DNA of 64,000 nucleotides from Nemertoderma westbladi (lineage: Eukaryota > Animalia > Xenacoelomorpha), in assembly GCA_032718475.1 (NCBI GenBank), contig JAUCBJ010008517.1, positions 1 to 64,000 on the forward strand, read 5' to 3'. Position 1 is the stretch's first letter. Each line of letters begins with the position of its first letter. The translations under genes and the position numbers were made by a program. This document shows, one piece after another, positions 3,961-64,000 of the stretch. The notes under the pieces were generated by a model. It was not told the origin of the DNA and ran no database searches. It saw only the letters and a list, made by a program, of their open reading frames with translations.

Positions 3961-4224
3961 TAATATTGCGCATAACATCTTTACAGCACTCTCTCAGTAT
4001 ATATCTGGCACGAAACGATTCAACTTTCTGGGATAGGCCAACTAAGCATTGTAGTTTTTAGTACAGTATGGGTTCATAGTTCTTAATAAAAATATTATAA
4101 TCTTGGTAAAGTGCATTAGCACCAGCGAGTAATCAAGAATGAAATACGTGCATGTGGGTGTGTGTACTGTGTATGTATGCACTATGCATGTAGTACTTGT
4201 GGCTGGTTTCGTATTGCTCAAGTG

Positions 4225-7267: not shown

Positions 7268-7284
7268 TACGACCTGCTACTAAC

Positions 7285-31612: not shown

Positions 31613-31792
31613 TTAGAAACCGTATTCGGATGGGGAGCGAGACCCCACGTCTAGGTGCTGCTTCAAAGTCCGCAGAGCGACCCTGGCTCGTTGCCTAGCT
31701 ACAGTCATAATATCGTCTGCTAACTGGTGGTCGTTGGTGTAGGAAACTCTGGCGGAGTCGAATATGTCTCGAACAAATCCGATAACTTCCTC
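31613..31792 (-). CDS. MIGA: Mitoguardin terminal coding exon (EEVIGFVRDIFD...LADDIM...YGF*)
   Basis: Acceptor TTTATTTGTTCAG|GAG, phase 0. Resembles the recalled MIGA2 C-terminus (QIVQYLRDMFDLDNVRYTS..ALADDIL). Confidence 0.85.
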   Translation of the reverse strand, partial: EEVIGFVRDIFDSARVSYTNDHQLADDIMTVARQRARVALRTLKQHLDVGSRSPSEYGF

Positions 31793-33286: not shown

Positions 33287-33414
33287 GAGCCGCTAGCTGA
33301 ATGGTTATGGAGTCAGACTTCCAACCAGGAGGTCACCATTTCGATCCCACCTGGACGTCATTGCCGACTTTGCAAAAGCTGTGCCCAACATAAAGTTATA
33401 ATAAATAAATAATA
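33287..33414 (+). mobile_element. Short tRNA-derived SINE or tRNA pseudogene
   Basis: TAGCTGAATGG A-box, anticodon-arm-like tcagacttccaaccagga, degenerate B-box tttcgatccc, and (aata)n tail. Confidence 0.5.
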
Positions 33415-33468
33415 GAGTTTATAATAAATAACAATCAAATACAGTGTAGCCCAGCCAACGTAACCAAC

Positions 33469-33648
33469 CTTGAAGTAAGAACAGAGATAGTGTACCGGCC
33501 CGGCTGCTGATTCTGTAGCGAGGAACCCCCAGGCTAGGGTGGGAGTAACGGCTTCAGTAACCGAGTAGAAGCGGGACATAAACCCGTCACGGACCGGGAG
33601 ATTACGACGTTTAGTGGAGATAACGGTCCAGGTAGCGGTGGACAGGGC
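33469..33648 (-). CDS. MIGA: Mitoguardin penultimate exon (ALSTATWTVISTKRRNLPVRDGFMSRFYSVTEAVTPTLAWGFL...CSYFK), 180 nt
   Basis: Acceptor CTTTTATTTCAG|GCC and donor AAG|GTTGGT, phase 0 at both ends. Matches recalled MIGA2 ALATACWSVLKAKRR..PDGFISHFYSVSEHVSPVLAFGFLG. Confidence 0.9.
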
Positions 33649-36600
33649 CTGAAATAAAAGGATAACGGTCCAGATAGCTGTGGACAGAGCCTGGAATAAA
33701 GGATAACGGTCCAGGTAGCGGTGGACAGAGCCTGGAATAAAGTATAACGGTCCAGGTAGCGGTGGACAGGGCCTGAAATAAAAGGATAACGGTCCAGGTA
33801 GCAGTGGACAGAGCCTGGAATAAAGGATAACGGTCCAGGTAGCGGTGGACAGAGCCTGGAATAAAGGATAACGGTCCAGGTAGCGGTGGACAGGGCCTGA
33901 AATAAAAGGATAACGGTCCAGGTAGCAGTGGACAGAGCCTGGAATAAAGGATAACGGTCCAGGTAGCGGTGGACAGAGCCTGGAATAAAAGGAAAACGGT
34001 CCAGGTAGCGGTGGACAGAGCCTGAATTAAAGGATAACGGTCCAGGTAGCGGTGGACAGAGCCTGAAATAAAAGGATAACGGTCCAGGTAGCGGTGGACA
34101 GGGCCTGAAATAAAAGGATAACGGTCCAGATAGCTGTGGACAGAGCCTGAATTAAAGGATAACGGTCCAGGTAGCAGTGGACAGAGCCTGGAATAAAAGT
34201 ATAACGGTCCAGGTAGCGGTGGACAGAGCCTGAAATAAAGGATAACTGTCCAAATAGCAGTGGACAGAGCCTGGAATAAAAGTATAACGGTCCAGGTAGC
34301 GGTGGACAGAGCCTGAAATAAAAGGATAACGGTCCAGATAGCAGTGGACAAAGACTGGAATAAAGGATAACGGTCCAGGTAGCAGTGGACAGAGCCTGGA
34401 ATAAAAGTATAACGGTCCAGGTAGCGGTGGACAGAGCCTGAAATAAAGGATAACTGTCCAAATAGCAGTGGACAGAGCCTGGAATAAAAGTATAACGGTC
34501 CAGGTAGCGGTGGACAGGGCCTGAAATAAAAGGATAACGGTCCAGATAGCTGTGGACAGAGCCTGAATTAAAGGATAACGGTCCAGGTAGCAGTGGACAG
34601 AGCCTGGAATAAAAGTATAACGGTCCAGGTAGCGGTGGACAGAGCCTGAAATAAAGGATAACTGTCCAAATAGCAGTGGACAGAGCCTGGAATAAAAGTA
34701 TAACGGTCCAGGTAGCGGTGGACAGAGCCTGAAATAAAAGGATAACGGTCCAGATAGCAGTGGACAAAGACTGGAATAAAGGATAACGGTCCAGGTAGCA
34801 GTGGACAGAGCCTGGAATAAAAGTATAACGGTCCAGGTAGCGGTGGACAGAGCCTGAAATAAAGGATAACTGTCCAAATAGCAGTGGACAGAGCCTGGAA
34901 TAAAAGTATAACGGTCCAGGTAGCGGTGGACAGAGCCTGAAATAAAAGGATAACGGTACAGATAGCAGTGGACAGAGCCTGAATTAAAGGATAACGGTCC
35001 AGGTAGCAGTGGACAGAGCCTGAAATAAAGGATAACTGTCCAAATAGCAGTGGACAGAGCCTGGAATAAAAGTATAACGGTCCAGGTAGCGGTGGACAGA
35101 GCCTGAAATAAAGGATAACGGTACAGATAGCAGTGGACAGAGCCTGAATTAAAGGATAACGGTCCAGGTAGCAGTGGACAGAGCCTGAAATAAAGGATAA
35201 CGGTACAGATAGCAGTGGACAGAGCCTGAATTAAAGGATAACGGTCCAGGTAGCAGTGGACAGAGCCTGAATTAAAGGATAACGGTCCAGGTAGCAGTGG
35301 ACAGAGCCTGAAATAAAGGATAACTGTCCAAATAGCAGTGGACAGAGCCTGGAATAAAAGTATAACGGTCCAGGTAGCGGTGGACAGAGCCTGAAATAAA
35401 GGATAACTGTCCAAATAGCAGTGGACAGAGCCTGGAATAAAAGTATAACGGTCCAGGTAGCGGTGGACAGGGCCTGAAATAAAAGGATAACGGTCCAGAT
35501 AGCTGTGGACAGAGCCTGAATTAAAGGATAACGGTCCAGGTAGCAGTGGACAGAGCCTGGAATAAAAGTATAACGGTCCAGGTAGCGGTGGACAGAGCCT
35601 GAAATAAAGGATAACTGTCCAAATAGCAGTGGACAGAGCCTGGAATAAAAGTATAACGGTCCAGGTAGCGGTGGACAGAGCCTGAAATAAAAGGATAACG
35701 GTCCAGATAGCAGTGGACAAAGACTGGAATAAAGGATAACGGTCCAGGTAGCAGTGGACAGAGCCTGGAATAAAAGTATAACGGTCCAGGTAGCGGTGGA
35801 CATAGCCTGAAATAAAGGATAACTGTCCAAATAGCCGTGGACAGAGCCTGGAATAAAAGTATAACGGTCCAGGTAGCGGTGGACAGGGCCTGAAATAAAA
35901 GGATAACGGTCCAGATAGCTGTGGACAGAGCCTGAATTAAAGGATAACGGTCCAGGTAGCAGTGGACAGAGCCTGGAATAAAAGTATAACGGTCCAGGTA
36001 GCGGTGGACAGAGCCTGAAATAAAGGATAACTGTCCAAATAGCAGTGGACAGAGCCTGGAATAAAAGTATAACGGTCCAGGTAACGGTGGACAGAGCCTG
36101 AAATAAAAGGATAACGGTCCAGGTAGCAGTGGACAAAGACTGGAATAAAGGATAACGGTCCAGGTAGCAGTGGACAGAGCCTGGAATAAAAGTATAACGG
36201 TCCAGGTAGCGGTGGACAGAGCCTGAAATAAAGGATAACTGTCCAAATAGCAGTGGACAGAGCCTGGAATAAAAGTATAACTGTCCAGGTAGCGGTGGAC
36301 AGAGCCTGAAATAAAAGGATAACGGTCCAGATAGCAGTGGACAGAGCCTGAATTAAAGGATAACGGTCCAAATAGCAGTGGACAGAGCCTGGAATAAAAG
36401 TATAACGGTCCAGGTAGCGGTGGACAGAGCCTGAAATAAAAGGAAAACGGTCCAAATAGCAGTGGACAGAGCCTGGAATAAAAGTATAACGGTCCAGGTA
36501 ACAGTGGACAGAGCCTGGAATAAAAGTATAACAGTCCAGGTAGCAGTGGACAAAGACTGGAATAAAGGATAACGGTCCAGGTAGCAGTGGACAGAGCCTG

Positions 36601-39600
36601 GAATAAAAGTATAACGGTCCAGGTAGCAGTGGACAGAGCCTGGAATAAAAGTATAACGGTCCAGATAGCTGTGGACAAAGACTGGAATAAAGGATAACGG
36701 TCCAGGTAGCAGTGGACAGAGCCTGGAATAAAAGTATAACGGTCCAGGTAGCAGTGACAACGACTGGAATAAAGGATAACGGTCCAGGTAGCAGTGGACA
36801 AAGACTGGAATAAAGGATAACGGTCCAGGTAGCAGTGGACAGAGCCTGGAATAAAGGATAACGGTCCAGGTAGCAGTGGACAAAGACTGGAATAAAGGAT
36901 AACGGTCCAGGTAGCAGTGGACAGAGCCTGGAATAAAGGATAACGGTCCAGGTAGCAGTGGACAAAGACTGGAATAAAGGATAACGGTCCAGGTAGCAGT
37001 GGACAAAGACTGGAATAAAGGATAACGGTCCAGGTAGCAGTGGACAGAGCCTGGAATAAAGGTATAACGGTCCAGGTAGCAATGGGCAGAGCCTGGAATA
37101 AAAGGAAAACGGTCCAGGTAACGGTGGACAGAGCCTGAAATAAAAGGATAACGGTCCAGATGCTGTGGACAGAGCCTGAATTAAAGGATAACGGTCCAGG
37201 TAGCAATGGGCAGAGCCTGGAATAAAAGGAAAACGGTCCAGGTAACGGTAACGGTGGACAGAGCCTGAAATAAAAGGATAACGGTCCAGATAGTTGTGGA
37301 CAGAGCCTGAATTAAAGGATAACGGTCCAGGTAGCAATGGGCAGAGCCTGGAATAAAAGGAAAACGGTCCAGGTAACGGTGGACAGAGCCTGAAATAAAA
37401 GGATAACGGTCCAGATGCTGTGGACAGAGCCTGAATTAAAGGATAACGGTCCAGGTAGCAATGGGCAGAGCCTGGAATAAAAGGAAAACGGTCCAGGTAA
37501 CGGTGGACAGAGCCTGAAATAAAAGGATAACGGTCCAGATAGTTGTGGACAGAGCCTGAATTAAAGGATAACGGTCCAGGTAGCAATGGGCAGAGCCTGG
37601 AATAAAAGGAAAACGGTCCAGGTAACGGTGGAAAGAGCCTGAAATAAAAGGATAACGGTCCAGATAGCTGTGGACAGAGCCTGAATTAAAGGATAACGGT
37701 CCAGGTAGCAATGGGCAGAGCCTGGAATAAAAGGAAAACGGTCCAGGTAACGGTGGACAGAGCCTGAAATAAAAGGATAACGGTCCAGATAGCTGTGGAC
37801 AGAGCCTGAATTAAAGGATAACGGTCCAGGTAGCAGTGGACAGAGCCTGGAATAAAAGTATAACTGTCCAGGTAGCGGTGGACAGAGCCTGAAATAAAAG
37901 GATAACGGTCCAGATAGCTGTGGACAGAGCCTGAATTAAAGGATAACGGTCCAGGTAGCAATGGGCAGAGCCTGGAATAAAAGGAAAACGGTCCAGGTAA
38001 CGGTGGACAGAGCCTGAAATAAAAGGATAACGGTCCAGATAGCTGTGGACAGAGCCTGAATTAAAGGATAACGGTCCAGGTAGCAATGGGCAGAGCCTGG
38101 AATAAAAGGAAAACGGTCCAGGTAACGGTGGACAGAGCCTGAAATAAAAGGATAACGGTCCAGATAGCTGTGGACAGAGCCTGAATTAAAGGATAACGGT
38201 CCAGGTAGCAGTGGACAGAGCCTGGAATAAAAGTATAACTGTCCAGGTAGCGGTGGACAGAGCATGAAATAAAAGGATAACGGTCCAGATAGCAGTGGAC
38301 AGAGCCTGAATTAAAGGATAACGGTCCAAATAGCACTGGACAGAGCCTGGAATAAAATTATAACGGTCCAGGTAGCAGTGGACAGAGCCTGGAATAAAAG
38401 TATAACAGTCCAGGTAGCAGTGGACAAAGACTGGAATAAAGGATAACGGTCCAGGTAGCAGTGGACAGAGCCTGGAATAAAAGTATAACGGTCCAGGTAG
38501 CAGTGGACAGAGCCTGGAATAAAAGTATAACGGTCCAGATAGCTGTGGACAAAGACTGGAATAAAGGATAACGGTCCAGGTAGCAGTGGACAGAGCCTGG
38601 AATAAAAGTATAACGGTCCAGGTAGCAGTGGACAACGACTGGAATAAAGGATAACGGTCCAGGTAGCAGTGGACAAAGACTGGAATAAAGGATAACGGTC
38701 CAGGTAGCAGTGGACAGAGCCTGGAATAAAGGATAACGGTCCAGGTAGCAGTGGACAAAGACTGGAATAAAGGATAACGGTCCAGGTAGCAGTGGACAGA
38801 GCCTGGAATAAAGGATAACGGTCCAGGTAGCAGTGGACAAAGACTGGAATAAAGGATAACGGTCCAGGTAGCAGTTGACAAAGACTGGAATAAAGGATAA
38901 CGGTCCAGGTAGCAGTGGACAGAGCCTGGAATAAAGGTATAACGGTCCAGGTAGCAATGGGCAGAGCCTGGAATAAAAGGAAAACGGTCCAGGTAACGGT
39001 GGACAGAGCCTGAAATAAAAGGATAACGGTCCAGATAGCTGTGGACAGAGCCTGAATTAAAGGATAACGGTCCAGGTAGCAATGGGCAGAGCCTGGAATA
39101 AAAGGAAAACGGTCCAGGTAACGGTGGACAGAGCCTGAAATAAAAGGATAACGGTCCAGATAGCTGTGGACAGAGCCTGAATTAAAGGATAACGGTCCAG
39201 GTAGCAATGGGCAGAGCCTGGAATAAAAGGAAAACGGTCCAGGTAACGGTGGACAGAGCCTGAAATAAAAGGATAACGGTCCAGATAGCTGTGGACAGAG
39301 GCTGAATTAAAGGATAACGGTCCAGGTAGCAATGGGCAGAGCCTGGAATAAAAGGAAAACGGTCCAGGTAACGGTGGACAGAGCCTGAAATAAAAGGATA
39401 ACGGTCCAGATAGCTGTGGACAGAGCCTGAATTAAAGGATAACGGTCCAGGTAGCAATGGGCAGAGCCTGGAATAAAAGGAAAACGGTTGGGGTAACGGT
39501 GGACAGAGCCTGAAATAAAAGGATAACGGTCCAGATAGCTGTGGACAGAGCCTGAATTAAAGGATAACGGTCCAGGTAGCAGTGGACAGAGCCTGGAATA

Positions 39601-40870
39601 AAAGTATAACTGTCCAGGTAGCGGTGGACAGAGCATGAAATAAAAGGATAACGGTCCAGATAGCAGTGGATAGAGCCTGAATTAAAGGATAACGGTCCAA
39701 ATAGCAGTGGACAGAGCCTGGAATAAAATTATAACGGTCCAGGTAGCAGTGGACAGAGCCTGGAATAAAGGTATAACGGTCCAGGTAGCAATGGACAAAG
39801 ACTGGAATAAAGGATAACGGTCCAGGTAGCAGTGGACAAAGACTGGAATAAAGGATAACGGTCCAGGTAGCAGTGGACAGAGCCTGGAATAAAAGTATAA
39901 CGGTCCATGTAGCAGTGGACAAAGACTGGAATAAAGGATAACGGTCCAGGTAGCAGTGGACAAAGACTGGAATAAAGGATAACGGTCCAGGTAGCAGTGG
40001 ACAAAGACTGGAATAAAGGATAACGGTCCAGGTAGCAGTGGACAAAGACTGGAATAAAGGATAACGGTCCAGGTAGCAGTGGACAAAGACTGGAATAAAG
40101 GATAACGGTCCAGGTAGCAGTGGACAAAGACTGAAATAAAGGATAACGGTCCAGGTAGCAGTGGACAAAGACTGGAATAAAGGATAACGGTCCAGGTAGC
40201 AGTGGACAAAGACTGGAATAAAGGATAACGGCCCAGGTAGCAGTGGACAGAGCCTGGAATAAAGGATAACGGTCCAGGTAGCAGTGGATAAAGACTGGAA
40301 TAAAGGATAACGGTCCAGGTAGCAGTGGACAAAGACTGGAATAAAGGATAACGGTCCAGGTAGCAGTGGACAAAGACTGGAATAAAGGATAACGGTCCAG
40401 GTAGCAGTGGACAAAGACTGGAATAAAGGATAACGGTCCAGGTAGCAGTGGACAGAGCCTGGAATAAAAGGAAAACGGTCCAGGTAGCGGTGGACAGAGC
40501 CTGAAATAAAGGATAACGGTCCAGGTAGCAGTGGACAAAGACTGGAATAAAGGATAACGGTCCAGGTAGCAGTGGACAAAGACTGAAATAAAGGATAACG
40601 ATCCAGGTAGCAGTGGACAAAGACTGGAATAAAGGATAACGGTCCAGGTAGCAGTGGACAGAGCCTGAAATAAAAGGATAACGGTCCAGGTAGCAGTGGA
40701 CAGAGCCTGCAATAAAAGGATAACGGTCCAGGTAGCAGTGGACAGAACCTGCAATAAAAGGATAACGGTCCAGGTAGCAGTGGACAAAGACTGGAATAAA
40801 GGATAACGGTCCAGGTAGCAGTGGACAGAGACTGGAATAAAATGATGACAGTCAAGGTAGTCGTGGACAG
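33619..40870 (-). repeat. 41/42-bp tandem array (~175 units) made of the splice acceptor plus the first 30 nt of the MIGA penultimate exon
   Basis: Minus-strand unit CTTT(T)ATTYCAG|GCTCTGTCCACYGCTACCTGGACCGTTATC. The last unit runs directly into unique exon sequence. Confidence 0.95.
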
Positions 40871-41483
40871 AAGAAGTCGTGGGTATATGAGTTGTTTTAT
40901 AAGGCCATAAGGACAAAAATTGCAGTCATAAAATAACGCATCGGAATCATCAAGTGTATTTCCAGCAACAGCAGGCAAATCTATGTGGCATTACAGCAAA
41001 TAACTTTAGAAACTGTATAATAATTATTCTCCTTAAGAGTTAAAGTGTAATAGCAAGAAACATGTTTCAAGGGATTTCGTCCTGCAAACGAATACTACAG
41101 CTGTCAATTCTCGCCTCTATTGCAATCCTAATAAATTGAGGTCAGATATTTAATATTTAAACGCAGTAAATATGGTAAATGGTTATCTGTTGTTTATTAT
41201 TTATTCCGAGAATGGGTAAGAATCAGAACAAACCAATCATAATGATTTACTTATAAAAAGTAACAGGGCGGCAAATTTAAACAAGTTTGCTACTTAAAAA
41301 ATCTGCCTTTAATTAACTGTAATGATTTAGGAAGTTCGAAGGCAGATCAGCTCAAACCATAAACTTCAGTAATTTAGTCAAGCGACAAGGACAACACTGT
41401 GCACTTTTGTTTACCCATGCAAACAGTTGTAAGCACCGCGATAATCGTCAACATTAATCGAATCGAATATTGATTCCAACCAT

Positions 41484-41512
41484 AGGGAGGCGGAGTTCTC
41501 CTCTTTATAAAA
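41484..41512 (+). promoter_or_regulatory. Possible GC box and TATA box upstream of the LanCL gene
   Basis: gggaggcggag followed by tataaaa, about 150 bp upstream of the ATG. Motif match only. Confidence 0.3.
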
Positions 41513-41662
41513 CCTTTCGGGTCCGGTCAGTAGAATACCCGGTCCTCTGCCCCAATGATAGTCTCGGTACCTAATTACGTTACGTAGGTAGGCCTACGAT
41601 ATTATTTTGTAAACTTATTTTAAGTTACTATTCTATTATAATTGAATGTCTTGATTTGTATT

Positions 41663-42880
41663 ATGGGCGACAATTCCAGAGAATTTGTAAATAAACTCTC
41701 TGATTATCCGAAATCGCGATGCAGTGAAAACGAAATTATAACCGACCAATTTAAATCGGAAGTATCTTCATTCATTTCTCGGCAACTTATATCCTTGAGT
41801 AGAAAGATAAACAGCGACAGTAAAGACCACAAAGATACGTCAATATACACCGGGGTATCTGGATATGGGTTGCTCTATTTCATACTATCCGAGAAATACT
41901 TTACCGGCGCGCAAAGTAGGGAATACCTAGAGAAATCCTTAACTATCATCGATAAACCTTTACGAGGTTTAAACGGACGTCGGTACACCTTCCTCTGTGG
42001 AGACGCCGGCCCTCTGGCATTAGGCGCCGTGCTATACCATAAACTGGATCGCCAACAACAAAGCTTACAATGCGTAGCGCAACTGGAGCAGATTTCGCAT
42101 ATCGTAAACGAAGAAGATCGTTCCGATATTCCAAACGAGATTCTATACGGTAGAGCTGGATATCTGTATAGTCTGTTATTCGTGAAACGATATATCGGTG
42201 AGAATTCTATAAAAAGTGATATTATCGATAAAACTGTTAACGCGATTCTTTATTCCGGTTACCAATTCGCGACAAAGAATAAACTAGCGACCCCGTTGAT
42301 GTACGAATGGCACGACAAAGGATATTTAGGGGCGGCCCATGGTCTCAGCGGGATTATCCACACTCTGATATTATCCGGTAGGATATCCGGCGGTAATTCC
42401 ACCAAAGATATTCTACTGTCTACCGACTTCCTTATCGATAAGCAGTTCCCGTCTGGTAACCTGCCCTCGTCTCTAGGCAACGACAAGGATCGTCTGGTGC
42501 AATGGTGCCACGGTGCACCGGGGGTGGTGTTCACGCTTCTAGAGGTCTATAAACTAACCTCCTTAGATAAATACCTCGCGGCGGCGCTTCAATGCGGACA
42601 AGTTGTCTGGGAGTGGGGACTCGTAACCAAGGGTTACGGTCTGTGTCACGGCGTGGCCGGTAACGCCTACACCTTCCTAGCGTTGTACCGCGTTACCATG
42701 GATACCAAGCACCTGCACCGAGCGTGCCAGTTCGCCAGATGGTGCCTCGATCACGGCACCCACGGATGCCGCACCCCAGACAGACCCAACTCGATGTACG
42801 AAGGTCTCGCGGGGACTATCGTCTTCATGGCCGATATGTTAAACCCAAAAGAAGCAGGATTCCCCGGATTTCAGATTTAA
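41663..42880 (+). CDS. LANCL: LanC-like protein (LanCL1/LanCL2 type), 405 aa, intronless CDS
   Basis: SIYTG..G, TFLCGDAGPLA, EILYGRAGYL, YLGAAHG, LVQWCHGAPG, KGYGLCHGVAGNAY, TPDRP.S.YEGLAG, FPGF. Zn-ligand Cys/Cys/His and the GxxHG His are intact. First ATG is at 41663 (the ORF track starts at a TTG). Candidate AATAAA at 43173. Confidence 0.95.
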   Translation: MGDNSREFVNKLSDYPKSRCSENEIITDQFKSEVSSFISRQLISLSRKINSDSKDHKDTSIYTGVSGYGLLYFILSEKYFTGAQSREYLEKSLTIIDKPLRGLNGRRYTFLCGDAGPLALGAVLYHKLDRQQQSLQCVAQLEQISHIVNEEDRSDIPNEILYGRAGYLYSLLFVKRYIGENSIKSDIIDKTVNAILYSGYQFATKNKLATPLMYEWHDKGYLGAAHGLSGIIHTLILSGRISGGNSTKDILLSTDFLIDKQFPSGNLPSSLGNDKDRLVQWCHGAPGVVFTLLEVYKLTSLDKYLAAALQCGQVVWEWGLVTKGYGLCHGVAGNAYTFLALYRVTMDTKHLHRACQFARWCLDHGTHGCRTPDRPNSMYEGLAGTIVFMADMLNPKEAGFPGFQI

Positions 42881-43424
42881 CTAAAAAGCCCCCACCCCCA
42901 CCCCTGTTCCACTGGTAAATCATATATCGTTCAGTCGCAACGTCGGCCACAATATATGTCCCATGCCATGTTCTATATTTTGACTATCTGACCTGTGATT
43001 GGTTACTTTTAGTTATCAGCAAGTCGGAAAATATTGTACAGCAATGTACAAAAAAAACTTTCAGTTTCATCTGTATTAGGCCTAATGTCTAATAGTACTG
43101 CTATTTCAAGATGTTCACTGAGGTAAGATGTTCACTGTTCTCTGTTGTGAATTGTTACGATGTATGGCCAAGAATAAATACAATATCAGTGGCAGAAGTT
43201 GTTTTTCTATCCGAATTTTAGAGGATAATAATAATATGGACGATTTACCTCCCTAGGGGGATGATGTGTCGCGTAGAAATACATGTTAAGTGTTAATTAG
43301 CGGGATATTTAAAGTACCGTCATATAACATTTACAATAAATTATTCATTTATCGGTAAAATATCCATAAACACTTGTATCTAATAGTATGGATATGAATA
43401 ATGAACAGATATAACTTAACTAAC

Positions 43425-43563
43425 CCGTTGTTTAAAGGAATCGCTTAACCATCGGTTTTGGATGGCTGCGACGACAGCCGATGGTGGATTCTCTAAGTCA
43501 TCGAAGGAATCCATTAAAACGAAGTCGAGAACAATATCGTAGAACGAAAGAGAAACAACTCCT
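43425..43563 (-). CDS. MIGA: Mitoguardin internal exon ([R]GVVSLSFYDIVLDFVLMDSFDDLENPPSAVVAAIQNRWLSDSFKQR)
   Basis: Acceptor TGTTTTACAG|A (an alternative AG lies 2 nt downstream) and donor CGG|GTTAGT, phase 0. Strongly resembles the recalled MIGA motif RGVVCMSFFDIVLDFILMDAFEDLENPP.SV.AV..NRWLSDSFKE. Confidence 0.92.
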
Positions 43564-46500
43564 CTGTAAAACAAACAATATCGTAGAACGAAAGAGAAAC
43601 AACTCCTCTGTAAAACAAACAATATCGTAGAACGAAAGAGAAACAACTCCTCTGTAAAACAAACAATATCGTAGAACGAAAGAGAAACAACTCCTCTGTA
43701 AAACAAACAATATCGTTGAATGAAAGAGAAACAACTCCTCTGTAAAACAAACAATATCGTAGAATGACAGAGAAACAACTCCTCTGTAAAACAAACAATA
43801 TCGTAGTACGAAAGAGAAACAACTCCTCTGTAAAACAAACAATATCGTAGTACGAAAGAGAAACAACTCCTCTGTAAAACAAACAATATCGTAGAACGAA
43901 AGAGAAACAACTCCTCTGTAAAACAAACAATATCGTAGAACGAAAGAGAAACAACTCCTCTGTAAAACAAACAATATCGTAGAACGAAAGAGAAACAACT
44001 CCTCTGTAAAACAAACAATATCGTAGAACGACAGAGAAACAACTCCTCTGTAAAACAAACAATATCGTAGTACGAAAGAGAAACAACTCCTCTGTAAAAC
44101 AAACAATATCGTAGAACGAAAGAGAAACAACTCCTCTGTAAAACAAACAATATCGTAGAACGAAAGAGAAACAACTCCTCTGTAAAACAAACAATATCGT
44201 AGAACGAAAGAGAAACAACTCCTCTGTAAAACAAACAATATCGTAGAACGACAGAGAAACAACTCCTCTGTAAAACAAACAATATCGTAGAACGAAAGAG
44301 AAACAACTCCTCTGTAAAACAAACAATATCATAGAACGACAGAGAAACAACTCCTCTGTAAAACAAACAATATCGTAGTACGAAAGAGAAACAACTCCTC
44401 TGTAAAACAAACAATATCGTAGAACGAAAGAGAAACAACTCCTCTGTAAAACAAACAATATCGTAGTACGAAAGAGAAACAACTCCTCTGTAAAACAAAC
44501 AATATCGTAGAACGAAAGAAAAACAACTCCTCTGTAAAACAAACAATATCGTAGAACGAAAGAAAAACAACTCCTCTGTAAAACAAACAATATCGTAGAA
44601 CGACAGAGAAACAACTCTGTAAAACAAACAATATCGTAGAACGACAGAGAAACAACTCCTCTGTAAAACAAACAATATCGTAGAACGAAAGAAAAACAAC
44701 TCCTATGTAAAACAAACAATATCGTAGAACGACAGAGAAACAACTCCTCTGTAAAACAAACAATATCGTAGAACGAAAGAGAAACAACTCCTCTGTAAAA
44801 CAAACAATATCGTAGAACGAAAGAGAAACAACTCCTCTGTAAAACAAACAATATAGTAGAACGAAAGAAAAACAACTCCTATGTAAAACAAACAATATCG
44901 TAGAACGACAGAGAAACAACTCCTCTGTAAAACAAACAATATCGTAGAACGAAAGAGAAACAACTCTGTAAAACAAACAATATCGTAGAACGACAGAGAA
45001 ACAACTCCTCTGTAAAACAAACAATATCGTAGAACGAAAGAAAAACAACTCCTATGTAAAACAAACAATATCATAGAACGAAAGAGAAACAACTCCTCTG
45101 TAAAACAAACAATATCGTAGAACGAAAGAAAAACAACTCCTATGTAAAACAAACAATATCGTAGAACGAAAGAAAAACAACTCCTATGTAAAACAAACAA
45201 TATAGTAGAACGAAAGAAAAACAACTCCTATGTAAAACAAACAATATCGTAGAACGACAGAGAAACAACTCCTCTGTAAAACAAACAATATTGTAGAACG
45301 AAAGAGAAACAACTCTGTAAAACAAACAATATCGTAGAACGAAAGAAAAACAACTCCTATGTAAAACAAACAATATCGTAGAACGACAGAGAAACAACTC
45401 CTCTGTAAAACAAACAATATCGTAGAACGAAAGAGAAACAACTCTGTAAAACAAACAATATCGTAGAACGACAGAGAAACAACTCCTCTGTAAAACAAAC
45501 AATATCGTAGAACGAAAGAAAAACAACTCCTATGTAAAACAAACAATATCGTAGAACGAAAGAGAAACAACTCCTCTGTAAAACAAACAATATCGTAGAA
45601 CGAAAGAAAAACAACTCCTATGTAAAACAAACAATATAGTAGAACGAAAGAAAAACAACTCCTATGTAAAACAAACAATATCGTAGAACGACAGAGAAAC
45701 AACTCCTCTGTAAAACAAACAATATCGTAGAACGAAAGAGAAACAACTCTGTAAAACAAACAATATCGTAGAACGACAGAGAAACAACTCCTCTGTAAAA
45801 CAAACAATATCGTAGAACGAAAGAAAAACAACTCCTATGTAAAACAAACAATATCGTAGAACGACAGAGAAACAACTCCTCTGTAAAACAAACAATATCG
45901 TAGAACGAAAGAAAAACAACTCCTATGTAAAACAAACAATATCATAGAACGACAGAGAAACAACTCCTCTGTAAAACAAACAATATCGTAGAACGAAAGA
46001 AAAACAACTCCTCTGTAAAACAAACAATATCGTAGAACGACAGAGAAACAACTCCTCTGTAAAACAAACAATATCGTAGAACGAAAGAGAAACAACTCCT
46101 CTGTAAAACAAACAATATCGTAGAACGACAGAGAAACAACTCCTCTGTAAAACAAACAATATCGTAGAATGACAGAGAAACAACTCCTCTGTAAAACAAA
46201 CAATATCGTAGAACGACAGAAAAACAACTCATCTGTAAAACAAACAATATCGTAGAACGACAGAGAAACAACTCCTCTGTAAAACAAACAATATCGTAGA
46301 ACGAAAGAAAAACAACTCCTCTGTAAAACAAACAATATCGTAGAACGACAGAGAAACAACTCCTCTGTAAAACAAACAATATCGTAGAACGAAAGAGAAA
46401 CAACTCCTCTGTAAAACAAACAATATCGTAGAACGACAGAGAAACAACTCCTCCGTAAAACAAACAATATTGTAGAACGAAAGAAAAACAACTCCTCTGT

Positions 46501-52500: not shown

Positions 52501-55500
52501 AGAAACAACTCCTCTGTAAAACAAACAATATCGTAGAACGAAAGAAAAACAACTCCTCTGTAAAACAAACAATATCGTAGAACGACAGAGAAACAACTCT
52601 GTAAAACAAACAATATCGTAGAACGACAGAGAAACAACTCCTCTGTAAAACAAACAATATCGTAGAACGAAAGAAAAACAACTCCTATGTAAAACAAACA
52701 ATATCGTAGAACGACAGAGAAACAACTCCTCTGTAAAACAAACAATATCGTAGAACGAAAAAGAAACAACTCCTCTGTAAAACAAACAATATCGTAGAAC
52801 AAAAGAGAAACAACTCCTCTGTAAAACAAACAATATAGTAGAACGAAAGAAAAACAACTCCTATGTAAAACAAACAATATCGTAGAACGACAGAGAAACA
52901 ACTCCTCTGTAAAACAAACAATATCGTAGAACGAAAGAGAAACAACTCTGTAAAACAAACAATATCGTAGAACGACAGAGAAACAACTCCTCTGTAAAAC
53001 AAACAATATCGTAGAACGAAAGAAAAACAACTCCTATGTAAAACAAACAATATCGTAGAACGAAAGAGAAACAACTCCTCTGTAAAACAAACAATATCGT
53101 AGAACGAAAGAAAAACAACTCCTATGTAAAACAAACAATATCGTAGAACGAAAGAGAAACAACTCTGTAAAACAAACAATATCGTAGAACGAAAGAAAAA
53201 CAACTCCTATGTAAAACAAACAATATCGTAGAACGACAGAGAAACAACTCCTCTGTAAAACAAACAATATCGTAGAACGAAAGAGAAACAACTCTGTAAA
53301 ACAAACAATATCGTAGAACGACAGAGAAACAACTCCTCTGTAAAACAAACAATATCGTAGAACGAAAGAAAAACAACTCCTATGTAAAATAAACAATATC
53401 GTAGAACGAAAGAGAAACAACTCCTCTGTAAAACAAACAATATCGTAGAACGAAAGAAAAACAACTCCTATGTAAAACAAACAATATAGTAGAACGAAAG
53501 AAAAACAACTCCTATGTAAAACAAACAATATCGTAGAACGACAGAGAAACAACTCCTCTGTAAAACAAACAATATCGTAGAACGAAAGAGAAACAACTCT
53601 GTAAAACAAACAATATCGTAGAACGACAGAGAAACAACTCCTCTGTAAAACAAACAATATCGTAGAACGAAAGAAAAACAACTCCTATGTAAAACAAACA
53701 ATATCGTAGAACGACAGAGAAACAACTCCTCTGTAAAGCAAACAATATCGTAGAACGAAAGAAAAACAACTCCTATGTAAAACAAACAATATCGTAGAAC
53801 GACAGAGAAACAACTCCTCTGTAAAACAAACAATATCGTAGAACGAAAGAAAAACAACTCCTCTGTAAAACAAACAATATCGTAGAACGACAGAGAAACA
53901 ACTCCTCTGTAAAACAAACAATATCGTAGAACGAAAGAGAAACAACTCCTCTGTAAAACAAACAATATCGTAGAACGACAGAGAAACAACTCCTCTGTAA
54001 AACAAACAATATCGTAGAATGACAGAGAAACAACTCCTCTGTAAAACAAACAATATCGTAGAACGACAGAAAAACAACTCCTCTGTAAAACAAACAATAT
54101 CGTAGAACGACAGAGAAACAACTCCTCTGTAAAACAAACAATATCGTAGAACGAAAGAAAAACAACTCCTCTGTAAAACAAACAATATCGTAGAACGACA
54201 GAGAAACAACTCCTCTGTAAAACAAACAATATCGTAGAACGAAAGAGAAACAACTCCTCTGTAAAACAAACAATATAGTAGAACGAAAGAGAAACAACTC
54301 CTCTGTAAAACAAACAATATCGTAGAACGAAAGAGAAACAACTCCTCTGTAAAACAAACAATATAGTAGAACGAAAGAGAAACAACTCCTCTGTAAAACA
54401 AACAATATCGTTGTACGAAAGAGAAACAACTCCTCTGTAAAACAAACAATATCGTAGAACGAAAGAGAAATAACTCCTCTGTAACACAAACAATATCGTA
54501 GAACGAAAGAGAAACAACTCCTCTGTAAAACAAACAATATAGTAGAACGAAAGAGAAACAACTCCTCTGTAAAACAAACAATATGGTAGAACGAAAGAGA
54601 AACAACTCCTCTGTAAAACAAACAATATAGTAGAACAAAAGAGAAACAACTCCTCTGTAAAACAAACAATATCGTAGAACGAAAGAAAAACAACTCCTCT
54701 GTAAAACAAACAATATCGTAGAACGAAAGAGAAACAACTCCTCTGTAAAACAAACAATATCGTAGAACGAAAGAAAAACAACTCCTATGTAAAACAAACA
54801 ATATCGTAGAACGACAGAGAAACAACTCCTCTGTAAAGCAAACAATATCGTAGAACGAAAGAAAAACAACTCCTATGTAAAACAAACAATATCGTAGAAC
54901 GACAGAGAAACAACTCCTCTGTAAAACAAACAATATCGTAGAACGAAAGAAAAACAACTCCTCTGTAAAACAAACAATATCGTAGAACGACAGAGAAACA
55001 ACTCCTCTGTAAAACAAACAATATCGTAGAACGAAAGAGAAACAACTCCTCTGTAAAACAAACAATATCGTAGAACGACAGAGAAACAACTCCTCTGTAA
55101 AACAAACAATATCGTAGAATGACAGAGAAACAACTCCTCTGTAAAACAAACAATATCGTAGAACGACAGAAAAACAACTCCTCTGTAAAACAAACAATAT
55201 CGTAGAACGACAGAGAAACAACTCCTCTGTAAAACAAACAATATCGTAGAACGAAAGAAAAACAACTCCTCTGTAAAACAAACAATATCGTAGAACGACA
55301 GAGAAACAACTCCTCTGTAAAACAAACAATATCGTAGAACGAAAGAGAAACAACTCCTCTGTAAAACAAACAATATCGTAGAACGACAGAGAAACAACTC
55401 CTCCGTAAAACAAACAATATTGTAGAACGAAAGAAAAACAACTCCTCTGTAAAACAAACAATATCGTAGAACGAAAGAGAAACAACTCCTCTGTAAAACA

Positions 55501-58500
55501 AACAATATCGTAGAATGAAAAAGAAACAACTCCTCTGTAAAACAAACAATATCGTAGAACGACAGAGAAACAACTCCTCTGTAAAACAAACAATATTGTA
55601 GAACGAAAGAAAAACAACTCCTCTGTAAAACAAACAATATCGTAGAACGAAAGAGAAACAACTCCTCTGTAAAACAAACAATATCGTAGAACGAAAGAGA
55701 AACAACTCCTCTGTAAAACAAACAATATCGTAGAACGAAAGAGAAACAACTCCTCTGTAAAACAAACAATATTATAGAAAGAAAGAGAAACAACTCCTCT
55801 GTAAAACAAACAATATCGTAGAACGAAAGAGAAACAACTCCTCTGTAAAACAAACAATATAGTAGAACGAAAGATAAACAACTCCTCTGTAAAACAAACA
55901 ATATCGTTGAACGAAAGAGAAACAACTCCTCTGTAAAACAAACAATATCGTAGAACGAAAGAGAAACAACTCCTCTGTAAAACAAACAATATCGTAGAAC
56001 GAAAGAGAAACAACTCCTCTGTAAAACAAACAATATCGTAGAACGAAAGGGAAACAACTCCTCTGTAAAACAAACAATATAGTAGAACGAAAGAGAAACA
56101 ACTCCTCTGTAAAACAAACAATATCGTAGAACGAAAGAGAAACAACTCCTCTGTAAAAGAAACAATATCGTTGAATGAAAGAGAAACAACTCCTCTGTAA
56201 AACAAACAATATCGTAGAACGAAAGAGAAACAACTCCTCTGTAAAACAAACAATATCGTAGAACGAAAGAGAAACAACTCCTCTGTAAAACAAACAATAT
56301 AGTAGAACGAAAGAGAAACAACTCCTCTGTAAAACAAACAATATCGTAGAACGAAAGAGAAACAACTCCTCTGTAAAACAAACAATATAGTAGAACGAAA
56401 GAGAAACAACTCCTCTGTAAAACAAACAATATCGTTGTACGAAAGAGAAACAACTCCTCTGTAAAACAAACAATATCGTAGAACGAAAGAGAAATAACTC
56501 CTCTGTAACACAAACAATATCGTAGAACGAAAGAGAAACAACTCCTCTGTAAAACAAACAATATAGTAGAACGAAAGAGAAACAACTCCTCTGTAAAACA
56601 AACAATATGGTAGAACGAAAGAGAAACAACTCCTCTGTAAAACAAACAATATAGTAGAACAAAAGAGAAACAACTCCTCTGTAAAACAAACAATATCGTA
56701 GAACGAAAGAAAAACAACTCCTCTGTAAAACAAACAATATCGTAGAACGAAAGAGAAACAACTCCTCTGTAAAACAAACAATATCGTAGAACGAAAGAGA
56801 AACAACTCCTCTGTAAAACAAACAATATCGTAGAACGAAAGAGAAACAACTCCTCTGTAAAACAAACAATATCGTAGAACGAAAGAGAAACAACTCCTCT
56901 GTAAAACAAACAATATAGTAGAACGAAAGAGAAACAACTCCTCTGTAAAACAAACAATATCGTAGAACGAAAGAGAAACAACTCCTCTGTAAAACAAACA
57001 ATATAGTAGAACGAAAGAGAAACAACTCCTCTGTAAAACAAACAATATCGTAGAACGAAAGAGAAACAACTCCTCTGTAAAACAAACAATATCGTAGTAT
57101 GAAAGAGAAACAACTCCTCTGTAAAACAAACAATATCGTAGAACGAAAGAAAAACAACTCCTCTGTAAAACAAACAATATCGTAGAACGAAAGAAAAACA
57201 ACTCCTCTGTAAAACAAACAATATCGTAGAACGACAGAGAAACAACTCTGTAAAACAAACAATATCGTAGAACGACAGAGAAACAACTCCTCTGTAAAAC
57301 AAACAATATCGTAGAACGAAAGAAAAACAACTCCTATGTAAAACAAACAATATCGTAGAACGACAGAGAAACAACTCCTCTGTAAAACAAACAATATCGT
57401 AGAACGAAAGAGAAACAACTCCTCTGTAAAACAAACAATATCGTAGAACGAAAGAGAAACAACTCCTCTGTAAAACAAACAATATAGTAGAACGAAAGAA
57501 AAACAACTCCTATGTAAAACAAACAATATCGTAGAACGACAGAGAAACAACTCCTCTGTAAAACAAACAATATCGTAGAACAAAAGAGAAACAACTCTGT
57601 AAAACAAACAATATCGTAGAACGACAGAGAAACAACTCCTCTGTAAAACAAACAATATCGTAGAACGAAAGAAAAACAACTCCTATGTAAAACAAACAAT
57701 ATCGTAGAACGAAAGAGAAACAACTCCTCTGTAAAACAAACAATATCGTAGAACGAAAGAAAAACAACTCCTATGTAAATGTAAAACAAACAATATCGTA
57801 GAACGAAAGAAAAACAACTCCTATGTAAAACAAACAACATAGTAGAACGAAAGAAAAACAACTCCTATGTAAAACAAACAATATCGTAGAACGACAGAGA
57901 AACAACTCCTCTGTAAAACAAACAATATCGTAGAACGAAAGAGAAACAACTCTGTAAAACAAACAATATCGTAGAACGAAAGAAAAACAACTCCTCTGTA
58001 AAACAAACAATATCGTAGAACGAAAGAGAAACAACTCCTCTGTAAAACAAACAATATCGTAGAACGAAAAAGAAACAACTCCTCTGTAAAACAAACAATA
58101 TCGTAGAACGACAGAGAAACAACTCCTCTGTAAAACAAACAATATTGTAGAACGAAAGAAAAACAACTCCTCTGTAAAACAAACAATATCGTAGAACGAA
58201 AGAGAAACAACTCCTCTGTAAAACAAACAATATCGTAGAACGAAAGAGAAACAACTCCTCTGTAAAACAAACAATATCGTAGAACGAAAGAGAAACAACT
58301 CCTCTGTAAAACAAACAATATTATAGAAAGAAAGAGAAACAACTCCTCTGTAAAACAAACAATATCGTAGAACGAAAGAGAAACAACTCCTCTGTAAAAC
58401 AAACAATATAGTAGAACGAAAGAGAAACAACTCCTCTGTAAAACAAACAATATCGTTGAACGAAAGAGAAACAACTCCTCTGTAAAACAAACAATATCGT

Positions 58501-61500
58501 AGAACAAAAGAGAAACAACTCCTCTGTAAAACAAACAATATCGTAGAACGAAAGAAAAACAACTCCTCTGTAAAACAAACAATATCGTAGAACGAAAGAG
58601 AAACAACTCCTCTGTAAAACAAACAATATAGTAGAACGAAAGAGAAACAACTCCTCTGTAAAACAAACAATATCGTAGAACGAAAGAGAAACAACTCCTC
58701 TGTAAAACAAACAATATCATTGAATGAAAGAGAAACAACTCCTCTGTAAAACAAACAATATCGTAGAACGAAAGAGAAACAACTCCTCTGTAAAACAAAC
58801 AATATCGTAGAACGAAAGAGAAACAACTCCTCTGTAAAACAAACAATATAGTAGAACGAAAGAGAAACAACTCCTCTGTAAAACAAACAATATCGTAGAA
58901 CGAAAGAGAAACAACTCCTCTGTAAAACAAACAATATAGTAGAACGAAAGAGAAACAACTCCTCTGTAAAACAAACAATATCGTTGAACGAAAGAGAAAC
59001 AACTCCTCTGTAAAACAAACAATATCGTAGAACGAAAGAGAAATAACTCCTCTGTAACACAAACAATATCGTAGAACGAAAGAGAAACAACTCCTCTGTA
59101 AAACAAACAATATAGTAGAACGAAAGAGAAACAACTCCTCTGTAAAACAAACAATATGGTAGAACGAAAGAGAAACAACTCCTCTGTAAAACAAACAATA
59201 TAGTAGAACAAAAGAGAAACAACTCCTCTGTAAAACAAACAATATCGTAGAACGAAAGAAAAACAACTCCTCTGTAAAACAAACAATATCGTAGAACGAA
59301 AGAGAAACAACTCCTCTGTAAAACAAACAATATCGTAGAACGAAAGAGAAACAACTCCTCTGTAAAACAAACAATATCGTAGAACGAAAGAGAAACAACT
59401 CCTCTGTAAAACAAACAATATCGTAGAACGAAAGAGAAACAACTCCTCTGTAAAACAAACAATATAGTAGAACGAAAGAGAAACAACTCCTCTGTAAAAC
59501 AAACAATATCGTAGAACGAAAGAGAAACAACTCCTCTGTAAAACAAACAATATAGTAGAACGAAAGAGAAACAACTCCTCTGTAAAACAAACAATATCGT
59601 AGAACGAAAGAGAAACAACTCCTCTGTAAAACAAACAATATCGTAGTATGAAAGAGAAACAACTCCTCTGTAAAACAAACAATATCGTAGAACGAAAGAA
59701 AAACAACTCCTCTGTAAAACAAACAATATCGTAGAACGAAAGAAAAACAACTCCTCTGTAAAACAAACAATATCGTAGAACGACAGAGAAACAACTCTGT
59801 AAAACAAACAATATCGTAGAACGACAGAGAAACAACTCCTCTGTAAAACAAACAATATCGTAGAACGAAAGAAAAACAACTCCTATGTAAAACAAACAAT
59901 ATCGTAGAACGACAGAGAAACAACTCCTCTGTAAAACAAACAATATCGTAGAACGAAAGAGAAACAACTCCTCTGTAAAACAAACAATATCGTAGAACGA
60001 AAGAGAAACAACTCCTCTGTAAAACAAACAATATAGTAGAACGAAAGAAAAACAACTCCTATGTAAAACAAACAATATCGTAGAACGACAGAGAAACAAC
60101 TCCTCTGTAAAACAAACAATATCGTAGAACGAAAGAGAAACAACTCTGTAAAACAAACAATATCGTAGAACGACAGAGAAACAACTCCTCTGTAAAACAA
60201 ACAATATCGTAGAACGAAAGAAAAACAACTCCTATGTAAAACAAACAATATCGTAGAACGAAAGAGAAACAACTCCTCTGTAAAACAAACAATATCGTAG
60301 AACGAAAGAAAAACAACTCCTATGTAAAACAAACAATATCGTAGAACGAAAGAAAAACAACTCCTATGTAAAACAAACAACATAGTAGAACGAAAGAAAA
60401 ACAACTCCTATGTAAAACAAACAATATCGTAGAACGACAGAGAAACAACTCCTCTGTAAAACAAACAATATCGTAGAACGAAAGAGAAACAACTCTGTAA
60501 AACAAACAATATCGTAGAACGAAAGAAAAACAACTCCTATGTAAAACAAACAATATCGTAGAACGACAGAGAAACAACTCCTCTGTAAAACAAACAATAT
60601 CGTAGAACGAAAGAGAAACAACTCTGTAAAACAAACAATATCGTAGAACGACAGAGAAACAACTCCTCTGTAAAACAAACAATATCGTAGAACAAAAGAA
60701 AAACAACTCCTATGTAAAACAAACAATATCGTAGAACGAAAGAGAAACAACTCCTCTGTAAAACAAACAATATCGTAGAACGAAAGAAAAACAACTCCTA
60801 TGTAAAACAAACAATATAGTAGAACGAAAGAAAAACAACTCCTATGTAAAACAAACAATATCGTAGAACGACAGAGAAACAACTCCTCTGTAAAACAAAC
60901 AATATCGTAGAACGAAAGAGAAACAACTCTGTAAAACAAACAATATCGTAGAACGACAGAGAAACAACTCCTCTGTAAAACAAACAATATCGTAGAACGA
61001 AAGAAAAACAACTCCTATGTAAAACAAACAATATCGTAGAACGACAGAGAAACAACTCCTCTGTAAAACAAACAATATCGTAGAACGAAAGAAAAACAAC
61101 TCCTATGTAAAACAAACAATATCGTAGAACGACAGAGAAACAACTCCTCTGTAAAACAAACAATATCGTAGAACGAAAGAAAAACAACTCCTCTGTAAAA
61201 CAAACAATATCGTAGAACGACAGAGAAACAACTCCTCTGTAAAACAAACAATATCGTAGAATGAAAGAGAAACAACTCCTCTGTAAAACAAACAATATCG
61301 TAGAACGACAGAGAAACAACTCCTCTGTAAAACAAACAATATCGTAGAATGACAGAGAAACAACTCCTCTGTAAAACAAACAATATCGTAGAACGACAGA
61401 AAAACAACTCCTCTGTAAAACAAACAATATCGTAGAACGACAGAGAAACAACTCCTCTGTAAAACAAACAATATCGTAGAACGAAAGAAAAACAACTCCT

Positions 61501-64000
61501 CTGTAAAACAAACAATATCGTAGAACGACAGAGAAACAACTCCTCTGTAAAACAAACAATATCGTAGAACGAAAGAGAAACAACTCCTCTGTAAAACAAA
61601 CAATATCGTAGAACGACAGAGAAACAACTCCTCCGTAAAACAAACAATATTGTAGAACGAAAGAAAAACAACTCCTCTGTAAAACAAACAATATCGTAGA
61701 ACGAAAGAGAAACAACTCCTCTGTAAAACAAACAATATCGTAGAACGAAAAAGAAACAACTCCTCTGTAAAACAAACAATATCGTAGAACGACAGAGAAA
61801 CAACTCCTCTGTAAAACAAACAATATTGTAGAATGAAAGAAAAACAACTCCTCTGTAAAACAAACAATATCGTAGAACGAAAGAGAAACAACTCCTCTGT
61901 AAAACAAACAATATCGTAGAACGAAAGAGAAACAACTCCTCTGTAAAACAAACAATATCGTAGAACGAAAGAGAAACAACTCCTCTGTAAAACAAACAAT
62001 ATTATAGAAAGAAAGAGAAACAACTCCTCTGTAAAACAAACAATATCGTAGAACGAAAGAGAAACAACTCCTCTGTAAAACAAACAATATAGTAGAACGA
62101 AAGAGAAACAACTCCTCTGTAAAACAAACAATATCGTTGAACGAAAGAGAAACAACTCCTCTGTAAAACAAACAATATCGTAGAACGAAAGAGAAACAAC
62201 TCCTCTGTAAAACAAACAATATCGTAGAACGAAAGAGAAACAACTCCTCTGTAAAACAAACAATATCGTAGAACGAAAGAGAAACAACTCCTCTGTAAAA
62301 CAAACAATATAGTAGAACGAAAGAGAAACAACTCCTCTGTAAAACAAACAATATCGTAGAACGAAAGAGAAACAACTCCTCTGTAAAACAAACAATATCG
62401 TTGAACGAAAGAGAAACAACTCCTCTGTAAAACAAACAATATCGTAGAACGAAAGAGAAACAACTCCTCTGTAAAACAAACAATATCGTAGAACGAAAGA
62501 GAAACAACTCCTCTGTAAAACAAACAATATAGTAGAATGAAAGAGAAACAACTCCTCTGTAAAACAAACAATATCGTAGAACGAAAGAGAAACAACTCCT
62601 CTGTAAAACAAACAATATAGTAGAACAAAAGAGAAACAACTCCTCTGTAAAACAAACAATATCGTTGAACGAAAGAGAAACAACTCCTCTGTAAAACAAA
62701 CAATATCGTAGAACGAAAGAGAAACAACTCCTCTGTAAAACAAACAATATCGTAGAACGAAAGAGAAACAACTCCTCTGTAAAACAAACAATATAGTAGA
62801 ACGAAAGAGAAACAACTCCTCTGTAAAACAAACAATATGGTAGAACGAAAGAGAAACAACTCCTCTGTAAAACAAACAATATCGTAGAACGAAAGAGAAA
62901 CAACTCCTCTGTAAAACAAACAATATCATTGAATGAAAGAGAAACAACTCCTCTGTAAAACAAACAATATCGTAGAACGAAAGAGAAACAACTCCTCTGT
63001 AAAACAAACAATATCGTAGAACGAAAGAGAAACAACTCCTCTGTAAAACAAACAATATAGTAGAACGAAAGAGAAACAACTCCTCTGTAAAACAAACAAT
63101 ATCGTAGAACGAAAGAGAAACAACTCCTCTGTAAAACAAACAATATAGTAGAACGAAAGAGAAACAACTCCTCTGTAAAACAAACAATATCGTTGAACGA
63201 AAGAGAAACAACTCCTCTGTAAAACAAACAATATCGTAGAACGAAAGAGAAATAACTCCTCTGTAACACAAACAATATCGTAGAACGAAAGAGAAACAAC
63301 TCCTCTGTAAAACAAACAATATAGTAGAACGAAAGAGAAACAACTCCTCTGTAAAACAAACAATATGGTAGAACGAAAGAGAAACAACTCCTCTGTAAAA
63401 CAAACAATATAGTAGAACAAAAGAGAAACAACTCCTCTGTAAAACAAACAATATCGTAGAACGAAAGAAAAACAACTCCTCTGTAAAACAAACAATATCG
63501 TAGAACGAAAGAGAAACAACTCCTCTGTAAAACAAACAATATCGTAGAACGAAAGAGAAACAACTCCTCTGTAAAACAAACAATATCGTAGAACGAAAGA
63601 GAAACAACTCCTCTGTAAAACAAACAATATCGTAGAACGAAAGAGAAACAACTCCTCTGTAAAACAAACAATATAGTAGAACGAAAGAGAAACAACTCCT
63701 CTGTAAAACAAACAATATCGTAGAACGAAAGAGAAACAACTCCTCTGTAAAACAAACAATATAGTAGAACGAAAGAGAAACAACTCCTCTGTAAAACAAA
63801 CAATATCGTAGAACGAAAGAGAAACAACTCCTCTGTAAAACAAACAATATCGTAGTATGAAAGAGAAACAACTCCTCTGTAAAACAAACAATATCGTAGA
63901 ACGAAAGAAAAACAACTCCTCTGTAAAACAAACAATATCGTAGAACGAAAGAAAAACAACTCCTCTGTAAAACAAACAATATCGTAGAACGACAGAGAAA
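43530..64000 (-). repeat. 44-bp tandem array (>=465 units, runs off the window) made of the splice acceptor plus the first 34 nt of the MIGA exon at 43563
   Basis: Minus-strand unit TGTTTTACAG|AGGAGTTGTTTCTCTTTCGTTCTACGATATTGTT. The last unit continues as CTCGACTTC into unique exon sequence. Confidence 0.97.

Follow-up and report, generated by a model that had tools for sequence, protein, structure and literature searches.

Two consecutive exons of a mitoguardin (MIGA) gene of Nemertoderma westbladi (Xenacoelomorpha) are each preceded by a giant tandem array made of copies of the exon's own 3' splice junction, or acceptor. The gene is coded on the minus strand of the 64,000-nucleotide stretch analyzed here, positions 1 to 64,000 of contig JAUCBJ010008517.1, which we call the window. 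The repeat type is already known from amphioxus, where it has been named 'mirage', and from human minisatellites that span splice junctions; what stands out in MIGA is the scale of the arrays and their presence at two consecutive acceptors. The choice of a 3' splice site is put to a natural experiment at this locus, as more than 550 acceptors with an intact CAG are transcribed before the one that is joined in the mRNA and are apparently skipped. We favor, as a likely though not assured explanation, that these are two independent satellite-sized mirages, each begun by duplication of a junction, enlarged by ordinary repeat turnover, and tolerated through commitment of the splicing machinery to the acceptor nearest to the exon's donor.

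Two arrays of acceptor copies precede consecutive exons

The two arrays were delimited with Tandem Repeats Finder (TRF). Array A was found at 43530-64000, with a period of 44 and 466.6 copies, and is cut by the end of the window, while array B was found at 33619-40871, with a period of 41 and 174.7 copies. With the functional unit included, array A has at least 466 units in at least 20.4 kb and array B has 174 units in 7.2 kb; these lengths are as assembled, the copy numbers being taken from the assembly and not from a spanning long read. Read on the minus strand, the unit of array A consists of a 10-nt intron tail ending in CAG followed by the 34-nt head of exon A, and that of array B of an 11-12-nt intron tail ending in CAG followed by the 30-nt head of exon B. 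The final unit of each array continues into its exon, which starts at 43563 (exon A) or 33648 (exon B). The original prediction, made from the sequence alone, had described two giant arrays of 41-44-bp units ahead of consecutive exons, built on one plan of polypyrimidine tail, CAG and exon start but unrelated in sequence, and the TRF positions, the copy counts and the dissection of the units agree with it. The local alignment score between the two units was matched by 453 of 500 and 130 of 500 shuffles, as expected of unrelated sequences. Furthermore, the first 20 nt of either unit have no match elsewhere in the 64-kb window, and an exact search for the units in metagenome contigs gave 0 matches.

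Both arrays have an internal structure above the level of the unit. In array A, stretches of 79 units (3.5 kb) and 58 units (2.6 kb) recur almost unchanged; in array B the units have periodicities of 3, 9 and 33. Exact repetition extends over as many as 30 units in A and 10 in B, compared with at most 6 and 3, respectively, in 20 shuffles each. In array B the units come to resemble the exon head more closely towards the exon, with 3.7 mismatches per 29 nt in the distal tenth and 1.5 in the proximal tenth; no unit has diverged more than the distal one, which has 8 mismatches in 29 nt and has lost its acceptor. Higher-order blocks, repeated runs and an eroded edge are commonly left by slippage and unequal exchange.

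Two further observations concern the composition of the units. C>T or G>A variants occur at all four CpG positions of the array A unit (exon +18/19 and +25/26) and at 5 of the 11 C or G positions outside CpG, a pattern that gives a weak hint of methylation of the array. The majority sequence of the array B unit differs from the exon at exon +3 and +12, both differences being synonymous in the exon frame; they may record an older state of the exon or CpG decay.

The exons belong to mitoguardin

The mitoguardin identity that had been proposed for these exons was borne out by the Pfam family Miga (PF10265). The coding parts of exons A, B and C matched it with E values of 7e-23, 7e-19 and 5e-7 and with 81.8, 68.6 and 29.5 bits, above the curated cut-off of 25, the match to exon C being to its coding part at 31613-31792. 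The three exons are colinear with the profile (Table 1) and join as a single open frame that ends in a stop codon. Since the exon-derived part of the units is conserved coding sequence, the exon preceded the repeat and not the reverse. Intron A-B contains 2.5 kb of non-array sequence besides array B, and a mirage array can therefore make up three quarters of the length of an intron.

Transcript evidence for use of the last acceptor

Eight sequencing runs from three studies were available, five of them with the flank; four were examined (X1 to X4) and none is registered as RNA. X4, labelled 'DNA?', was taken as poly(A) RNA from its content alone, because it has two GT-AG joins, an A-run at a 3' end and a joint that is absent from X1-X3. 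One X4 contig of 2,589 nt, at depth 505.5, joins 43569-43424, 33649-33468 and 31791-31111 directly to one another and has zero differing letters; exon A is at contig positions 1583-1728, exon B at 1727-1908, and exon C with the 3' untranslated region at 1909-2589. The exon joins that had been predicted, 43425>33648 and 33469>31792, are thus both found in a contig of a run that behaves as RNA. The joint between exons B and C (33468>31791) passes over 1,676 nt that have GT-AG ends, and X1, X2 and X3 do not contain it. Upstream of exon A, the contig proceeds in non-array, in-frame sequence. At each of the two joins only one exon head is present, and therefore the last acceptor was used both times. 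The last array copy is apparently the acceptor used in the assembled mRNA for both exons, which bears out the proposal that the final unit is the functional exon start. A processed retrocopy in DNA was considered as the source of this contig and was rejected in view of the GT-AG joins, the A-run and the absence of the joint from X1-X3.

The depth of X4 over the bin of array B, 303.8, is wholly explained by the mRNA contig, as shown by arithmetic on the depth tables, and no X4 contig lies on the two array B units upstream of exon B. In the bin of array A, the depth is explained by the mRNA contig together with a single 74-nt array A contig of depth 97, which is most simply read as low background from introns or DNA spread over hundreds of copies.

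We also observed that the mRNA agrees with the last six letters of the exon A acceptor (43564-43569), which means that the upstream exon and the intron share their final six letters. The cut position at exon A is consequently ambiguous, after 43564 or after 43562, the upstream donor being outside the window.

Table 1. Features of the window, with coordinates on the forward strand.
Feature	Position	Strand	Description
Array A	43564..64000	-	465 in-window upstream copies of the 44-bp unit; runs past the window end
Array B	33649..40871	-	173 upstream copies of the 41/42-bp unit; distal edge eroded
MIGA exon A	43425..43563	-	139 nt; first 34 nt are the final array A unit; Pfam Miga 395-439
Intron A-B	33649..43424	-	9,776 nt, GT..AG; 7,223 nt are array B
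MIGA exon B	33469..33648	-	180 nt; first 30 nt are the final array B unit; Pfam Miga 441-497
Intron B-C	31793..33468	-	1,676 nt; arrays at neither end (TRF); joint seen in X4 only
MIGA exon C	31111..31792	-	Last coding exon, stop 31613-31615, 3' untranslated region to at least 31111; Pfam Miga 498-535
LANCL2-like gene	41666..43419	+	Intronless, nested antisense in intron A-B; coding sequence 41666-42880; open reading frame, Pfam LANC_like E 4e-76, X4 contigs
CUB/sushi membrane-protein gene	1458-10118	-	Predicted; two very large exons, inferred in-frame intron 7284-2771
Reverse-transcriptase open reading frame	14019-15512	+	497 aa; Pfam RVT_1; LINE-like element
10-bp array	18366-19059		68 copies; TRF
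62-bp array	23061-24781		28 copies; adjoins a retrotransposon remnant

Intact decoy acceptors and splice-site choice

Most of the skipped copies, which we call decoys, keep the signals of an acceptor. CAG is in register in 389 of 466 array A units and in 171 of 174 array B units, functional units included, that is, in 558 of the 638 upstream copies of both arrays; YAG occurs within -6..+3 in 461 of the 466 array A units. The closest array A decoy and the true acceptor are identical over 109 nt upstream and 34 nt downstream, and 47 of 465 decoys in A and 4 of 173 in B match the true site for 40 nt or more before it and 29 nt or more after it. As CAG is present in all 23 decoys nearest to exon A and in all 109 nearest to exon B, the silence of the decoys is not due to decay; and as decoys match the true site locally, local sequence cannot pick the true acceptor. 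Unless wrong products are removed, the deciding signal must come from how far away the donor is or from the part of the exon that follows +34 (A) or +30 (B). The skipped decoys place this signal downstream of exon +34 and argue against a simple first-come rule. We infer, in addition, that the branch point must lie within the exon-derived sequence of the preceding unit.

The AG positions of the decoys show no clear excess or deficit of change, that is, no sign of selection. Use of a decoy would in most cases shift the reading frame; the frame stays open at +132 nt (third A decoy) and at +42 nt (first B decoy). The units contain no donor resembling MIGA's own donors, their internal GT motifs being different. 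Recursive (ratchet) splice sites were considered and rejected, since the AG-GT motif is absent and CAG is followed by AGG in array A and by GC or TC in array B.

Among established mechanisms, cross-exon proximity under exon definition is the candidate for such a choice (PMC9225289). When 3' sites compete, the upstream site is still favored overall in that study, exon definition only reducing the preference.

Origin and growth of the arrays

The explanation that we favor has three steps. A 41-44-bp segment across the acceptor would first have been duplicated, its last copy staying joined to the intact exon. The splicing machinery would then commit only to the acceptor nearest to the exon's own donor, which would account for the product observed in the X4 contig; alternatively, wrong splice products may be destroyed. 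Finally, repeat turnover would have generated the patterns observed in the arrays, with short higher-order repeats in B and duplicated blocks of 1-3.5 kb in A. Under this explanation the introns have probably been lengthened by neutral filler. We also considered, and rejected, the Rogers model of intron gain by tandem duplication, in which a new intron is made from duplicated copies and splits an exon (PMC3087553): the arrays lie inside introns that have their own upstream donors, intron A-B includes 2.5 kb outside the array, and the mRNA contains no unit-made exon.

A number of points weigh against this explanation. The window has four acceptors and three donors, from the three MIGA exons and an inferred two-exon CUB/sushi gene, and arrays sit on 2 of the 4 acceptors and on 0 of the 3 donors, which a plain neutral model does not predict. 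The two largest of the four arrays longer than 500 bp straddle junctions, and under a null of uniform seeding the chance of the junction hits within the window is 1e-4 to 4e-4, a value that is suggestive only, the window having been chosen post hoc for this very feature. On the side of splicing, X4 does contain the array A contig, and the transcript evidence comes from a single assembled contig of a single run, which is not registered as RNA; moreover, contigs drop rare isoforms, and products lost to decay are invisible in them. Lastly, the upstream preference reported in PMC9225289 is reduced and not reversed by exon definition, so that the full downstream choice seen in MIGA exceeds the prediction of that paper.

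The first of these points are those expected if, in this lineage, 3' splice sites are favored places for arrays to be seeded or to expand, through a mutational bias such as polymerase pausing, R-loops or T-tract slippage, and giant introns are regularly built in this way. Besides the 2 of 4 acceptors against 0 of 3 donors and the low local chance, unit length and offsets are alike in two unrelated sequences, and the origin of mirages is called unclear in PMC3087553. The original prediction had taken the common design of the arrays as evidence of such a process, possibly coupled to splicing or transcription. The design is indeed shared, but its polarity is automatic, because any tandem duplication straddling an acceptor leaves the last copy on the exon and the rest in the upstream intron; the shared geometry of arrays A and B is not evidence for a special process. 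The two acceptor hits and the similar unit length, on the other hand, are not automatic. Against a bias towards acceptors also stand the choice of the window after the fact, the published mirages at both boundaries (PMC3087553), the donor-side position of the human examples (PMC1557585), and the two other arrays of the window (10 bp and 62 bp), which have no evident exon at their ends; arrays therefore also form away from known junctions. We consider such a bias a minority possibility. In its strongest form, a lineage-wide mutational process at 3' splice sites would make multi-kilobase acceptor satellites and be the main route to giant introns, with the spliceosome skipping hundreds of perfect acceptors, made minutes before the true one, by strict cross-exon definition, and this too we hold to be rather unlikely. 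A genome-wide acceptor bias, if true, would bear on the birth of minisatellites and on intron growth.

It is considerably less probable that the decoys are truly used on a first come, first served basis, with products that decay or persist as minor in-frame isoforms, and that the arrays thereby tune MIGA output. CAG in register in so many decoys, the open frame at the third A and first B decoys, the array A contig of X4, and the use of the nearest pseudo-sites in the human CBS and 6-16 repeats (PMC1557585) would all suit this proposal. However, the mRNA contig is unbroken across both junctions at its high depth and X4 has no B-unit contig, the decoy AGs show no sign of conservation or purging, and the units lack a donor like MIGA's own.

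Depth of the arrays in sequencing runs

The claim that sequencing depth would support the arrays held in X1 and X2, which are possibly source runs of the window. The summed contig depth on the array A unit was 49,574 in X1 and 92,365 in X2, compared with about 27 and 47 on unique flanks, and that at the array B end was 410 and 1,479, compared with about 25 and 8-46 on the flanks. Simulation from the assembled arrays gave expected depth ratios of 46-3,175 for A and 13-217 for B according to the shortest contig counted. The X1 and X2 ratios fall within the simulated ranges, at about 1,800-2,000 for A; observed ratios for array B were 8-176. In X3 the ratios, 33 (A) and 8-22 (B), were somewhat under the simulated ranges. 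As the simulation varies about 70-fold with the assumed shortest contig, summed depth shows that copies are many and is no measure of copy number. Many array copies thus exist in the DNA, given the high depth in runs of two studies.

That the arrays are genuine but their length was wrongly inflated or collapsed by the assembly is very improbable. In its favor, the lengths come without a spanning long read, the window may itself derive from X1 or X2, and exact 30-unit repeats in array A could mislead an assembler. Against it, distinct unit types number 57 and 55 and follow one another in ordered higher-order patterns, the X1 and X2 ratios are compatible with ranges simulated from the assembled copy numbers, and coverage is deep in runs of two studies.

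A contig of run X2 leaves the array A unit at 43591, through a decayed stretch resembling the exon head, into at least 255 unique letters. It may come from a copy dispersed elsewhere or from the point where array A ends distally.

Relation to known junction repeats

In amphioxus, mirages have been described as minisatellites in Adh3, in the globin genes BflGb6 and BflGb9, in troponin C and in PGBD5 (PMC3087553, PMC3902484). They are described as leaving splicing undisturbed, with a homogenised interior and a diverged edge, and the mechanism of their origin as unclear (PMC3087553); those of PGBD5 have 2-7 copies (PMC3902484). Both MIGA arrays have the properties of a mirage: a head-to-tail unit across a real intron/exon boundary, a terminal copy that is the authentic junction with the rest intronic, splice signals retained in many copies (the CAG counts given above), undisturbed normal splicing of the dominant form (one unbroken contig in one run), and concerted evolution inside with a diverged edge, the distal end of array A being outside the window. 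They thus resemble the amphioxus repeats as tandem copies of an intron/exon boundary with normal splicing, the layout being the same as in BflGb6 (intron 3' end plus exon 5' part) and the unit lengths falling in the 10-72 bp range given for Adh3. They differ in copy number, with 174 and at least 466 copies where the mirages of the globin genes and of PGBD5 have 2-7 (Adh3 is outside this comparison), in their kilobase higher-order blocks, in occupying two consecutive acceptors, and in a host without near relatives among the sequenced animals of the protein collection (best LANCL matches 41-50% identical). It had been suggested that arrays of this scale were undescribed. Within the literature searched this holds for the scale, as we found no mirage of hundreds of copies there (subscription journals were mostly outside its coverage), but not for the type, which was already named at acceptors (PMC3087553). 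The MIGA arrays extend mirages from few copies to satellite scale.

Human minisatellites that span splice junctions include those of F7 IVS7 (intervening sequence 7; 37 bp, 5-9 copies), CBS IVS13 (15-20 copies), 6-16 (25 pseudo-sites), lamin B2 and PDGF (PMC1557585). These donor-side repeats have 5-26 copies, and in some of them the nearest pseudo-sites are used (PMC1557585). The CBS repeat, which had been cited as a precedent, is genuine but lies on the donor side (PMC1557585). The likeness to MIGA is that identical pseudo-sites are repeated into the intron and that the exon-adjacent site is used; these repeats have served as models of splice-site choice (PMC1557585). In the human repeats, however, the authentic site is transcribed first, whereas in MIGA the used site is transcribed last of hundreds, and consequently a first-come rule fails to explain the choice. 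The MIGA arrays also have about 7 to more than 50 times more copies. Finally, the Drosophila Y-loop genes kl-3 and kl-5 have giant introns filled with satellite (PMC6508621) and resemble MIGA in that introns enlarged mainly by tandem repeats are still spliced. Their introns hold megabases of simple satellite, which the available text of PMC6508621 does not describe as copies of their own junctions, whereas those of MIGA hold tens of kilobases derived from an acceptor.

Other features of the window

No array lies at either inferred junction of the CUB/sushi gene. The 62-bp array adjoins a retrotransposon remnant that is probably Bel/Pao-like, judging by motifs in its open reading frames. No convincing exon was found at either end of this array that would make it a third mirage, on inspection of open reading frames without a Pfam scan or RNA.

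A 669-nt X4 contig of depth 19 covers both 27149-27592 and 28633-28835, and may be either a repeat or a spliced transcript of low abundance.

The LANCL2-like transcript has a loose end with a poly(A) A-run at 43419 in X4; the donor of MIGA exon A, on the opposite strand, is 5 nt away. Among the best 120 of 1,492 matches, homologues of its protein are 41-50% identical, and the protein is about equidistant from those of annelids, echinoderms, arthropods, vertebrates and cnidarians. X3 contains a second LANCL-like contig, with 19 differences.

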